Made by a program: the position numbers and the translations under genes. This document shows positions 8,819-12,715 of a stretch of 64,000 bases of DNA, one piece after another. Each line of letters starts with the position of its first letter. Within the stretch, counting starts at the first letter, position 1. The stretch is from Desulfovibrionales bacterium (lineage in GTDB: Bacteria > Desulfobacterota > Desulfovibrionia > Desulfovibrionales > Desulfovibrionaceae): positions 46,935-110,934 of the forward strand of contig JASGMV010000001.1 in the NCBI GenBank assembly GCA_030156255.1, in the 5' to 3' direction. The notes beneath the pieces are model-generated. The model was not told the DNA's origin. It worked only from the letters and a program-made list of their open reading frames with translations, and did not search any database.

Positions 8819-11800
8819 GTGCAATCCCGCCAACATCGAGAGCTCGAAGGCTTCGATTCGGTCTACGCTTTTTTGTGGTCCACGACGCTTTACGAACCGC
8901 AGGAACGCATCTTTCCAGAAATCCAACGTATTCTCGAACTGCACCGGAAGCTGGCCGAAGCCGATCCCGACAGCTCGGCCTCCGAGCCCGCCCACTCGAG
9001 GCTGGCCGTTCTGCTGTCGCGCATAATCCGCAGCGCCGAATCCGAGGCGCTTCGCGCGATGCTTTTACCCTGGCTCGCCCAATGCGGCTGCTTCGGCATG
9101 ACTCTGGCCGCGCACGCCATCATTTCCGGCCCCTATACCCCCAAGGAGCTCGACAAACTTTTATCCGACCTGCCGCCGGAGCTCCTGCTGGATCTCCTTG
9201 AAGAAGTCGTCAACCGATCCGAGGGCAAGGAGGACATTCAGGATTGGGCCGTCAGTTTTCTCGACGTGGTGGCCGGGCAAAACCGGGAAGCCGTTCTTTG
9301 GAGCCTCTCCAAGGCGCGCAACGACCTGGAGGGCCCCTCCTACGCCTTGGAGCGCGCCGCCCTGGAGGGAGCCTTCGGCCAGCGTCTGCAAGAGCTGCTC
9401 GAGTCGCCCACGTCCCTGGGGGAAATGGTGGAGTACGTCCAGGCCGCCGGCATTCTGCCGTCGGCCGCCATGGCCGACCTGTTGATGCACCAAATAGAGC
9501 GGTGTTCGGACGAACTGACGCCCGATCTCCTGAAGGCCCTGGCCCAACAAGGAACGGCCACGCCCCAAAAGGTGAAGGCCCTGGTCAATCGGCTCTCCCA
9601 CAAAAACGAGCGTGTGCGCATCGCCGCTCTGGACGGCCTCATGAATCTGCGGCCTCCGAACATCGGTCAACTCCTGGCCCGGGTCCACGCCAAGCTGGTG
9701 GGGTTGCGCTGCGTGCTGCTGACGAGAATCCCTCTGCTTTCACGCGCCGAATTCAACGCCTTCATCAAAAGCATCCCCGAGAAGGAGCGTCCCGAACTCC
9801 TGTACCGATTGTTCCACATCCTCACGCATCTCGACTCCGAGTCGTTGAAAATCGCCCTGCGCATGACCCTGGCCGATCTCGGAGACAAATCTCCCGCGCA
9901 AAAGACGGTCCAGGCGCTGGAGTCGCTTTTGCCGCAACCGGAAATACCGAGCCTGAATAAACCGGAGCCGCCTTCCGGACCGGAAGCCCTGGCCGGGGAC
10001 AAGAACGGCAAAGAGTCCGGCGGACTGCTCAGCGGCCTGTTCGGCAAACCGGAAAAAAAGGCGCAGGGCCGGCCGAACAACGGGGAACCGTCCCTGCGCC
10101 TGGCCCAAACGGAGCTCAAGCGCGCGGACTACAAAGGCCGCCTGCTTCGCAAAGCCTGCTTTGAAGACGTCGTTCTCGATACATGCCATATGGAGCGCGC
10201 GTATTTCGAGGCCGGCGAATTCACTCGATGCGTCTTCAAGCATATGAACCTTCAACAGGCCGCCTTTGTGGACTGCGCCTTCAACGACTGCTCCTTCGAG
10301 GCCTGCGACCTTTCGGGGGCCCACTGGCACGGATGCTCCCTGCAGGGCGTTTGCTTCTCCCACTGCGTCATGGACCGCAGCCAGCATCACCGGAACCAGT
10401 GGCGGCAAGTGCTGCTGGAGGCCTCGACCCTGTTCGACGCCGCCCTGACCTTCCAGGACATGCTCGCCGTCCGCCTGTCCAACGTCGATTTGACCGAGGC
10501 CTCCCTGAACCGGGTGGAGGCCAACGGGTTGGAGCTCGCCGGCTGCCTGCTCCATCGCACGCTCTTTTTCCGTTGCCGGCTGGATAGCGTCACCACCTGG
10601 GCCTTGAGCATACGAAACTGCGGCGCCTCGGGTTTGGAGTCCTTCCACCCCGTGCTGCTGGACCTGGCGCGCAACAGCCTGCGCGACCGCATCGACGCGA
10701 TAACCGAAGAAGCGTGGGGGAGCAATCCGGACGGGCGCGAGCCGCCGAAGGCTTCGCCCCCGGCCCAGCGTCTGGCTGGGGAGGCCGTTTCGCGTTGGTT
10801 TGCGGCCAGGGACTTCAAAGACAAACTCACGCGCTTCATGGCCAACAACATCCGGCGCGAGGAATGGTGCAAGCAGAAACTCGGCTCGCGCCAATGGAAA
10901 CTCTACAAAGTCATTCCGCTGCTCTTGTCCAGCACGGCCTTCGACAAGGCCAGCGGTCTGTTTCCGGCGGCCCCCCCCTGTAGAATCAGCAATTACGCTC
11001 CGGACTACACCACCGTGCGTATCGCCCAGGAGCTCTTCCCCGAAGAAGAGAACTGGCTCTCCCAACCCGGCGACGCCCTGGCCATCGATGCGCTGTTCAC
11101 CATCGGCAGCGTCGGCACAGTGGCCCAGAACGAGGCCTCGGACCTGGACTACTGGGTCTGCGCCCAACTGTCCGACCTCGCCCCCGGCGACCGGGAAAGC
11201 CTGGCCGACAAACTGGCCATGCTCACGGATTGGGCCATGGAGCAGTTCGAACTGGAAGCCTATTTTTTCCTCATGGACAACGAAGACGTACGCAACAACA
11301 ACTTCGGGTTCAGCGACAAGGAAAGCTCCGGTTCGGCCCAGGCCATGATGCTCAAGGAGGAATTCTACCGCTCGGCCGTGCTCTCGGCCGGGAAATATCC
11401 CATCTGGTGGTTCACTCCGCCCGGGTCCAGCGCCAAGGGGTACGGAAGCGTTGCTCGGCAGGCCGAGCGCCTGATAGGCGCCGACCGCGTGGTGGACCTG
11501 GGCCGCATGGCCCCGATCCCCCCGGAGGAGTTTTTCGGCGCGGCTCTCTGGCAGATCGTCAAGGGGCTCAAAAGCCCATTCAAGTCCATCATGAAATTCG
11601 GGCTGCTCGAACGCTATACCATGGGCAGCGGAGAAACAGACGCCCTGCTTTGCGACAGGATCAAACGCAGCCTGCACGCCGGCGCCCAAAGTTTGTGGGA
11701 CATCGACCCGTACGTGGTCATGTTCCGGGAGATCATCGAGCACTACGAGCGGTCAAAAGACCGTGAGAGCGCCCGGCTCGCCGCCCTGTCCTTCCACCTC

Positions 11801-12715
11801 AAGGCCAGGCTCCACGAGGCCGCGGCCCAGGCCAAACGGCGTCCGGCCACCCGGCGCGAAAAAGACGTGCTGGAGCTGTTCTCCAAGACCACAGGCATCG
11901 GCCGGGACTCCTCCACGGCGGCCCTCGCCTCGTCGGACCTCACCTTCGAGCAGCTCGCCGCCCTCAGCGGCCGCGTCAACCAGTTCATGACAAAGACCTA
12001 CACCCGGGTACGGCAAAGCCAGGGCGAAAGCGCCAAGCTGGCGATCACTCCGGAGGATTTGACCAAGCTCGGCAGGAAAATCTTCGCCACCTTCTCCCGC
12101 CGGCGGCACAAAATCGAACACTCGGCCTTCCTCAACCTGAAAGCCGGCTTCTTCAACAATCTCCATGTGGCCGTGCACCACGAGAAAAAAGGGCGATCCT
12201 GGGAGTTGGTCGGCGGGCAGATGGACGAAGCCCACGGCAGGGTGCGCATATCCAAGCTCCGCAAAGGGCCCGCGCTCGTCCCCCTGCTGGTCTGGTTCTC
12301 AGCCAACAAGCTCCATCACGAGGGACTCCAGCTCAAGCTCGACCTGCAGGCCGCGCCCCTCACGCCCCAGGACGTCATGGAGCTTCTCACCGCCTTCGCG
12401 GCCTTTTTCCCGGCCAAAGAGACCTTCGAAACCGATATCGACGAAAACCTCAAGGCCGAGCGCATCACTCGGGCCTTTTTCGTGCTCAACCTCATGGCGC
12501 CCAGAGACGCCGACGTGATCCGGGAGGTGTCCCTGGTCTACTCCACGAACTGGGGGGAGCTCTTCTGCCGCGACATGCCGGCCGAGGACGAGATCATCGC
12601 CGTGGACCCCTACCAGTACCTGAAGAACCATCTGGACATCGAGGCGCCCGAGACGCCGGTGATGGACATCTACATCCCCAACCGGTCCATGTGCCCGGGC
12701 ATTCTGCTTATCTGA
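8819..12715 (+). CDS. Class-I (CyaA-type) adenylate cyclase with N-terminal HEAT-like and pentapeptide-repeat extension
   Basis: The catalytic region aligns with E. coli CyaA from memory:
- 'FTIGSVGTVAQNEASDLDYWVC' vs '[22 protein letters not shown]'
- 'EEFYRSAVLSAGK' vs 'DEFYRTAVRLAGK'
- 'EEFFGAALWQIVKGLKSPFKS' vs '[21 protein letters not shown]'

A HEAT-like 'ERVRIAALDGL' is present. Pentapeptide repeats lie at about nt 10150-10600. The start is inferred as in-frame GTG 8819, 8 nt after GGAG; the track ORF start 8165 overlaps hemC and fmdB. Confidence 0.85.
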   Translation: MQSRQHRELEGFDSVYAFLWSTTLYEPQERIFPEIQRILELHRKLAEADPDSSASEPAHSRLAVLLSRIIRSAESEALRAMLLPWLAQCGCFGMTLAAHAIISGPYTPKELDKLLSDLPPELLLDLLEEVVNRSEGKEDIQDWAVSFLDVVAGQNREAVLWSLSKARNDLEGPSYALERAALEGAFGQRLQELLESPTSLGEMVEYVQAAGILPSAAMADLLMHQIERCSDELTPDLLKALAQQGTATPQKVKALVNRLSHKNERVRIAALDGLMNLRPPNIGQLLARVHAKLVGLRCVLLTRIPLLSRAEFNAFIKSIPEKERPELLYRLFHILTHLDSESLKIALRMTLADLGDKSPAQKTVQALESLLPQPEIPSLNKPEPPSGPEALAGDKNGKESGGLLSGLFGKPEKKAQGRPNNGEPSLRLAQTELKRADYKGRLLRKACFEDVVLDTCHMERAYFEAGEFTRCVFKHMNLQQAAFVDCAFNDCSFEACDLSGAHWHGCSLQGVCFSHCVMDRSQHHRNQWRQVLLEASTLFDAALTFQDMLAVRLSNVDLTEASLNRVEANGLELAGCLLHRTLFFRCRLDSVTTWALSIRNCGASGLESFHPVLLDLARNSLRDRIDAITEEAWGSNPDGREPPKASPPAQRLAGEAVSRWFAARDFKDKLTRFMANNIRREEWCKQKLGSRQWKLYKVIPLLLSSTAFDKASGLFPAAPPCRISNYAPDYTTVRIAQELFPEEENWLSQPGDALAIDALFTIGSVGTVAQNEASDLDYWVCAQLSDLAPGDRESLADKLAMLTDWAMEQFELEAYFFLMDNEDVRNNNFGFSDKESSGSAQAMMLKEEFYRSAVLSAGKYPIWWFTPPGSSAKGYGSVARQAERLIGADRVVDLGRMAPIPPEEFFGAALWQIVKGLKSPFKSIMKFGLLERYTMGSGETDALLCDRIKRSLHAGAQSLWDIDPYVVMFREIIEHYERSKDRESARLAALSFHLKARLHEAAAQAKRRPATRREKDVLELFSKTTGIGRDSSTAALASSDLTFEQLAALSGRVNQFMTKTYTRVRQSQGESAKLAITPEDLTKLGRKIFATFSRRRHKIEHSAFLNLKAGFFNNLHVAVHHEKKGRSWELVGGQMDEAHGRVRISKLRKGPALVPLLVWFSANKLHHEGLQLKLDLQAAPLTPQDVMELLTAFAAFFPAKETFETDIDENLKAERITRAFFVLNLMAPRDADVIREVSLVYSTNWGELFCRDMPAEDEIIAVDPYQYLKNHLDIEAPETPVMDIYIPNRSMCPGILLI

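Follow-up and report, generated by a model that had tools for sequence, protein, structure and literature searches.

The class I adenylate cyclase encoded in a 64,000-nucleotide stretch of a Desulfovibrionales genome (GenBank assembly GCA_030156255.1, contig JASGMV010000001.1, positions 46,935 to 110,934 of the forward strand; the whole of this stretch is referred to here as the window) combines a catalytic module that is homologous to Escherichia coli CyaA with a large N-terminal arm, which consists of a predicted all-α solenoid and a predicted pentapeptide-repeat β-helix. To judge by its sequence, this cyclase is real and probably active, and we consider it fairly likely that it forms cyclic AMP (cAMP) and that its N-terminal arm serves as a regulatory input. 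The gene is a complete open reading frame (ORF) on the forward strand at 8819..12715, which starts with GTG at 8819, ends with a stop codon at 12713-12715 and specifies 1298 amino acids. These are exactly the coordinates given in a preliminary description of the gene that had been made from the sequence alone, and the single gene assumed there is indeed what is found, continuous and intact. The idea that the N-terminus might belong to a separate gene was discarded, since the reading frame is continuous here and the length recurs in about 65 homologues.

The class I cyclase module extends over residues about 647-1285. Its entry is one long predicted helix (residues 647-704; 10757..10930), which in the AlphaFold2 model runs from the β-helix into the N-terminal domain of the cyclase. 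This domain, which holds a nucleotidyltransferase core of the DNA polymerase β (pol-β) type, was identified by Pfam as Adenyl_cycl_N (PF12633; residues 671-864; 10829..11410) with an E-value of 1.7e-49 and 168.9 bits against a gathering score of 27, covering profile positions 7-199 of 199, and its core is also apparent in the AlphaFold2 model. The Adenylate_cycl profile (PF01295) defines a second class I cyclase region (residues 892-1227; 11492..12499; E 9e-37, 127.3 bits against 27), which includes D963, i.e. the equivalent of D300 in E. coli CyaA; only positions 3-336 of the 601 in this profile are covered, with 337-601 unmatched. The module ends in a C-terminal α/β domain (residues 1114-1285; 12158..12673) that is seen with AlphaFold2 and, by hhalign, is homologous to residues ~450-617 of E. 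coli CyaA. The AlphaFold2 model of residues 640-1298 as a whole (predicted local distance difference test score, pLDDT, 91; predicted template modelling score 0.88) thus comprises the long helix, an α/β nucleotidyltransferase core, a helical domain and the C-terminal α/β domain. A Foldseek search with the cyclase part produced weak matches only, to the pol-β-type nucleotidyltransferases ANT(9), AadA, MNT and GlnE (E at least 6e-3), and no class I cyclase structure was found in the PDB by sequence or by fold search; as far as these searches see, class I adenylate cyclases are structurally unsolved.

The nucleotidyltransferase signature GS-x(9-10)-SDLDxW is intact in the window cyclase, where it reads GSVGTVAQNEASDLDYW (residues 763-779; 11105..11155). 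In the BLASTP alignment, S764, S774, D775, D777 and W779 correspond to S103, S113, D114, D116 and W118 of E. coli CyaA, and further along the chain E848, R851, K859 and D963 correspond to E185, R188, K196 and D300, all of which are reportedly important for the activity of the E. coli enzyme, a finding ascribed to Linder in 2008. Across 76 sequences of the family, G763, S764, G766, S774, D777, W779, E848 and D963 are invariant, with D775 and R851 conserved in at least 90% of them. A possible loss of catalytic residues, which the preliminary description had singled out for careful alignment, therefore did not come to light; the motif residues are retained. Homology to CyaA is also evident beyond single residues: a BLASTP alignment of residues 694-1092 to E. 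coli CyaA 33-426 shows 29% identity (E 6e-41), and hhalign, with a profile of the 76 sequences, reaches CyaA 10-617 over 581 columns (probability 100, E 5.5e-67), in line with the ~580 aligned residues estimated previously. The assignment of the C-terminal part, some 650 residues, to the class I adenylate cyclases is thus supported by Pfam, by hhalign and by the conserved catalytic residues.

The comparison with E. coli CyaA (848 residues) also shows where the two proteins part. Residues 618-848 of the E. coli enzyme, i.e. the end of its glucose- and EIIA-Glc-responsive regulatory region, have no counterpart in the window cyclase, as the hhalign alignment ends at 617. The preliminary description had already noted the absence of an E. 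coli-type C-terminal regulatory domain, yet homology runs past the catalytic domain to ~617. Conversely, E. coli CyaA has nothing like the 640-residue arm of solenoid and pentapeptide repeats. A module of the same extent, with the C-terminal α/β domain included and likewise without the long enterobacterial tail, is known from the short-form class I cyclases (~620-675 residues; NF006981), which in contrast to the window cyclase carry no N-terminal arm. The highest-ranking matches in the NCBIfam collection are its nine models of class I cyclases, led by NF006981 (a 638-residue short-form model) with 415 bits over residues 670-1260.

The arm, altogether ~640 residues, begins with an all-α solenoid of the ARM/HEAT type with 22 helices (residues 1-370; 8819..9928). 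In the AlphaFold2 model, which was built on a 66-sequence family alignment (pLDDT 87.7), the solenoid is predicted with a pLDDT of ~95 over residues 20-370 (blocks of ~85-98 over 11-370). Foldseek against the PDB matched it to β-catenin, IntS4, designed ARM proteins, importin-α and CpcE/F with E-values of 2e-4 to 1e-2 and low template modelling scores of ~0.3, and the modelled likeness to ARM/HEAT proteins is one of fold class, not of one specific relative. At the level of Pfam profiles, both HEAT_2 on residues 237-281 (E 1e-4, 22.8 bits against a gathering score of 27.7) and HEAT (12.8 bits against 23.5) stay below their cut-offs, and one homologue fragment (P0147) does pass with 32.2; with Pfam scores under the threshold, the HEAT assignment is based mainly on the predicted fold. 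A phmmer search of 1.84 billion representative proteins with residues 1-440 returned 49 matches, nearly all of which are ~1300-residue members of the same cyclase family, the small remainder being genuine HEAT-repeat proteins (NACHT-HEAT and similar) whose matches fall on residues 189-296. From this match list we conclude that the solenoid is a divergent HEAT/ARM array which is essentially private to this cyclase family. Only L86 and G90 are invariant in it across the family. The solenoid is followed by a Pro/Gly/Lys/Glu-rich and poorly conserved linker (residues 371-435; 9929..10123), for which disorder is predicted over residues 371-430 and where the pLDDT falls below 50 over residues 394-430.

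Beyond the linker, residues ~436-605 (10124..10633) form a pentapeptide-repeat region with ~34 in-register units of the A(D/N)LXX type, for which we predict a right-handed quadrilateral β-helix of roughly 8 coils. Over residues about 447-540 it is recognized by Pentapeptide_4 (PF13599; E 7e-15, 55.3 bits against a gathering score of 38) and by Pentapeptide (PF00805; E 9e-9, 35.2 bits against 20.2), and its sequence matches in the PDB are Qnr, MfpA, McbG-like proteins and Np275/276 (E 1e-7). With these and with HetL it shares the repeat type and the ~8-coil β-helix. Those relatives, however, are stand-alone proteins of ~200 residues, whereas the β-helix of the window cyclase is an internal domain of an enzyme. 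Taken together, Pfam, PDB matches, AlphaFold2 and Foldseek bear out the earlier view of the N-terminal part as HEAT-like repeats plus a pentapeptide β-helix, the HEAT part remaining sub-threshold in Pfam, and the two peptides quoted at the time are located at residues 252-266 and from 447 onward.

A survey of its phyletic distribution, as had been suggested in the preliminary description, shows that this fusion is not rare and that it forms one Desulfovibrionales clade. A word-indexed search turned up 38 full-length proteins that are built in the same way (1229-1430 residues, mostly 1270-1340), whose named hosts are all Desulfovibrionales and which are labelled only 'class I adenylate cyclase'. 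Examples are the auto-annotated cyclases of Alkalidesulfovibrio alkalitolerans DSM 16529, Desulfobaculum xiamenense, Oceanidesulfovibrio marinus and Paucidesulfovibrio gracilis (1275-1342 residues), which have the same three-part architecture, are 28-37% identical over nearly the full length, fall into the same clade and differ from the window cyclase by sequence divergence alone. In a scan of species-representative genomes 181 relatives were found, the best 80 of which underlie all locus-level counts (ORF lengths, neighbours) reported here. Apart from one Desulfobacterales metagenome-assembled genome (MAG), another MAG that was probably mis-binned and several that bear no closer label than 'Proteobacteria' or 'metagenome', these 80 belong to the Desulfovibrionaceae/Desulfovibrionales; the window itself groups with the Desulfovibrionaceae, formerly δ-proteobacteria, and hence with the delta-type anaerobes to which it had been attributed. 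A complete ORF of 1260-1350 codons is present in about 65 loci, and several MAGs carry two paralogues of the fused cyclase. The fusion is the standard form of class I cyclase in at least 65 Desulfovibrionales genomes and is already auto-annotated.

Across 65 homologues, identity to the window protein is ~20% in the solenoid and the β-helix and 32-43% in the cyclase parts; segment lengths are 404-470 residues for the solenoid and 194-224, mostly 205-214, for the β-helix (taken as 425-640). Lengths that are held at such low identity, together with the number of complete genes, their single clade and a solenoid that occurs almost nowhere else, point to selection on the design as a whole. When a tree is built from the cyclase module, the fused proteins come out as a single clade (Shimodaira–Hasegawa-like approximate likelihood ratio test 100, stem 0.92), which is separate from the gammaproteobacterial long forms, E. 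coli CyaA included, and from several clades of short forms (~630-675 residues). The only 'short' protein inside this clade (P0053) is a fragment of a 1300-residue gene which, on a long-read contig, was called in three pieces and which adjoins a second, intact paralogue and an Apyc1-like phosphodiesterase gene. Because there is a single clade and its sole short member is a split gene, the fusion of solenoid, pentapeptide repeats and cyclase arose once and has been maintained since. The closest public relative of the cyclase, from a JGI metagenome, is 83% identical, and the DNA of the window is present in subsurface, landfill, wastewater, sludge and oil-field metagenomes. One metagenome contig (L082, 3099-11772) carries two convergent ~1300-residue cyclase paralogues with a gene for an Apyc1-like phosphodiesterase of the metallo-β-lactamase (MBL) fold between them; one of these paralogues is called as three ORFs (400 + 104 + 666 residues), owing to a frameshift or to long-read errors. 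A role in anti-phage defence, at which matches to HalA and Apyc1 might hint, was rejected, as the HalA match is repeat-only (34 against 250 bits), the cyclase gene looks vertically inherited and its neighbours are housekeeping genes.

Which signals might reach such a cyclase? A tblastn search with HPr, EI and EIIA-Glc of the E. coli phosphotransferase system (PTS) detected no PTS genes in the 64-kb window or within 4 kb on either side of the 80 related loci, the only match of these queries being a PPDK-like gene; in this respect, too, the window cyclase differs from E. coli CyaA. Neighbours recur in a subclade-specific manner only, namely HD-GYP, an outer-membrane protein (OMP), pgm, holB, purA and a cyclic nucleoside monophosphate (cNMP)-binding protein. 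An HD-GYP gene (HD_5 + DUF3391) is located directly upstream of the cyclase gene and on the same strand in 11-18 loci. In the Solidesulfovibrio-type subclade (L062, L068, L069, L076, L079, L080, L081 and others; ~1240-2650), the HD-GYP protein has 428 residues and the median gap is 64 nucleotides, which suggests a cyclase/phosphodiesterase operon in this subclade. In 7 Desulfocurvus-type loci (L058, at 41-472, and 6 similar ones), a stand-alone cNMP-binding protein of ~143 residues is encoded ~2.7 kb upstream of the cyclase. None of the subclade-specific neighbours, the signalling ones included, is found in the window. What does recur there is the head-to-head arrangement of hemC and cyaA of E. 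coli K-12, with a small fmdB-like gene in between. As a meaningful link to E. coli this synteny was rejected, since hemC is near the cyclase in only 2 of the 80 relatives (L004, L011) and is on the other side, i.e. downstream, there; it is probably due to chance.

How could the parts of this protein work together? We envisage a cytoplasmic enzyme with a pol-β nucleotidyltransferase fold, which would convert ATP to cAMP by means of its GS...SDLDxW motif, with the two Asp residues holding Mg2+ ions. The arm would stand in place of the enterobacterial 618-848 tail as the control element, its parts being the solenoid (residues 1-370), a flexible tether of ~65 residues, a rigid β-helix of ~34 units and one long helix that leads to the catalytic core. 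The solenoid, and perhaps also the β-helix, might bind a protein partner or dock back onto the cyclase and in this way turn cAMP synthesis on or off, and the outcome would be PTS-independent control of a class I cyclase in Desulfovibrionales. ARM/HEAT solenoids are typically protein-binding surfaces, and because both folds of the arm are typical protein-binding or oligomerization scaffolds, control via protein–protein contact or autoinhibitory docking seems most likely. It is the catalytic part that rests on direct sequence evidence; that the product is cAMP, that the arm regulates and what kind of signal it receives are matters of inference. More specifically, and only tentatively, the arm may be a dedicated receiver for a protein partner or a cellular state (energy, redox or motility) that gates cAMP synthesis in sulfate reducers. 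If so, class I cyclases would have a second mode of regulation, independent of the PTS, which arose once and was kept, with duplications, throughout the Desulfovibrionales, and the pentapeptide-repeat fold would have its first enzyme-regulatory role.

Several observations weigh against an active cyclase with a regulatory arm. Neither clustering of flanking ORFs nor Pfam tallies of the nearest neighbours revealed a neighbour gene that is conserved family-wide, and without a conserved partner gene there is no candidate ligand or partner. Moreover, all nine NCBIfam class I models score below their equivalog cut-offs (best 415 against 802 bits, for NF006981), and the function is therefore transferred across a deep split. 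The solenoid, in which hardly any residue is invariant, could equally well be a scaffold or a sensor. Finally, no RNA runs carrying the window sequence were found, the runs that carry it being DNA metagenomes only.

The same observations bear on alternative explanations. The cyclase could be active and the arm purely structural, i.e. serve oligomerization or act as a spacer or an anchor, with control exerted by the level of substrate, by the C-terminal α/β domain or by degradation of cAMP. That the arm segments keep their lengths although their sequences have diverged to ~20% identity and hardly a residue is invariant would agree with such a role, as would the lack of a conserved partner gene and the fact that pentapeptide proteins are often rigid dimeric scaffolds. 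However, some 640 residues are retained in every paralogue and lineage, which seems costly for a mere spacer, and solenoids of the ARM/HEAT class usually bind proteins, so that we regard a purely structural arm as rather unlikely. Even less probable, in our view, is a change in the chemistry itself, such that the module would make another cyclic or linear nucleotide, transfer a nucleotide to a substrate or be a dead pseudoenzyme. With 29% identity to E. coli and a clade of its own on a branch of 0.92, the module is deeply split from the characterized enzymes, the equivalog thresholds of NCBIfam are not reached, and the pol-β nucleotidyltransferase fold class includes many non-cyclases. Yet all the motif residues in common with E. 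coli CyaA are present and largely invariant in the family, the homology of 581 columns extends beyond the nucleotidyltransferase core, relatives have phosphodiesterase and cNMP-binding neighbours, and a dead enzyme would hardly be expected to show the strong purifying conservation seen in the core (about 40% identity).

The β-helix has also to be considered as a DNA mimic of the Qnr/MfpA type, through which the cyclase would be linked to DNA gyrase, to a topoisomerase or to some other protein that binds DNA, and cAMP would report the state of the nucleoid or of supercoiling. In the PDB and in NCBIfam, residues 430-600 indeed find their best matches in Qnr, MfpA and McbG-like proteins. These matches, however, reflect the generic repeat, as the NCBIfam Qnr models reach 35 bits on the β-helix against a cut-off of 240, and the segment is far below any Qnr or HetL equivalog cut-off. 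Its net charge is -4 in the window protein and ranges from -12 to +12 (median -2) in the 65 homologues; because of this span, an acidic DNA-like surface appears to be no family trait, and we have rejected DNA mimicry as a role of the pentapeptide domain, giving it hardly any probability. An active cAMP-forming cyclase with a regulatory arm is the reading we prefer.

Class I cyclases are the textbook source of cAMP for catabolite repression, and what is known of their regulation comes, to our knowledge, essentially from the enterobacterial PTS alone. Here the same catalytic module is joined to a wholly different, large N-terminal arm, and this across a whole order of anaerobes. Characterization of the fusion would reveal how a class I cyclase is controlled without EIIA-Glc, assign a function to an internal pentapeptide-repeat domain and open up the cAMP physiology of sulfate reducers, where a full signalling unit is hinted at by the genes for phosphodiesterases and cNMP-binding proteins that adjoin the cyclase in relatives. 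What is gained is an increment and not a new concept, as the enzyme class is known and databases already display the architecture. In the literature, our searches brought up no study of this fusion or of class I cyclases in Desulfovibrio, none of the cAMP signalling of this family, nor any characterization of the auto-annotated Desulfovibrionales enzymes. A review had pointed to the narrow distribution of class 1 enzymes (PMC1183210), and in 2026 a class I CyaA that binds flavin and responds to light was claimed for a Vibrio strain (PMC13079933), which suggests that the input diversity of class I cyclases is only beginning to be explored.

The start of the gene at 8819 is supported by several lines of evidence: a Shine–Dalgarno sequence, AGGAG (8806..8810, forward strand), is read 8 nucleotides before the GTG; a candidate σ70-like promoter, TTGACA-16 nt-GATATT (8742..8769, forward strand), which is a consensus match only (10 of 12 positions), lies upstream; the 1298-residue homologue with 83% identity aligns from residue 2; and a confident helix in the AlphaFold2 model also begins at residue 2. 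The promoter candidate sits in the 232 nucleotides that separate the divergently transcribed fmdB-like and cyclase genes, and is one of 2 promoter-like sites found, where 0.5 would be expected in shuffled sequence. The reading frame is open further upstream, back to 8165, but a longer ORF was rejected and the upstream extension is regarded as non-coding because it overlaps the minus-strand gene for an FmdB zinc-ribbon protein (8353-8586); homologues, too, begin at 8819. Since transcription of the cyclase gene leads away from fmdB-hemC (hemC on the minus strand, 7351-8289) and converges, with a gap of 28 nucleotides, on the gene for an MsbA-like ABC exporter (12743-14506, minus strand), the cyclase gene is probably monocistronic and a transcription unit of its own.

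Among the neighbours in the window, the FmdB-type protein (Zn_ribbon_8; 77 residues; 8353-8586, minus strand) has a Gly/Ser/Cys-rich C-terminal tail, ...GGGDFGGSFGGGSSSGCSSCSGGNCSTCGG, and its gene possesses its own ribosome-binding site, GAGGAGGA. More distant genes of the window, which encode TPR, MBL-rhodanese, SulP-STAS, CheW-REC, GT2 glycosyltransferase, PTPS and D-Tyr-tRNA deacylase proteins, have no evident link to the cyclase. Two genes downstream of the cyclase gene, a CheV-like protein with a CheW domain and a receiver domain is encoded at 14688-15650 on the minus strand, and a cobalamin riboswitch (RF00174; 67.8 bits) is located at 62743-62871 on the forward strand.

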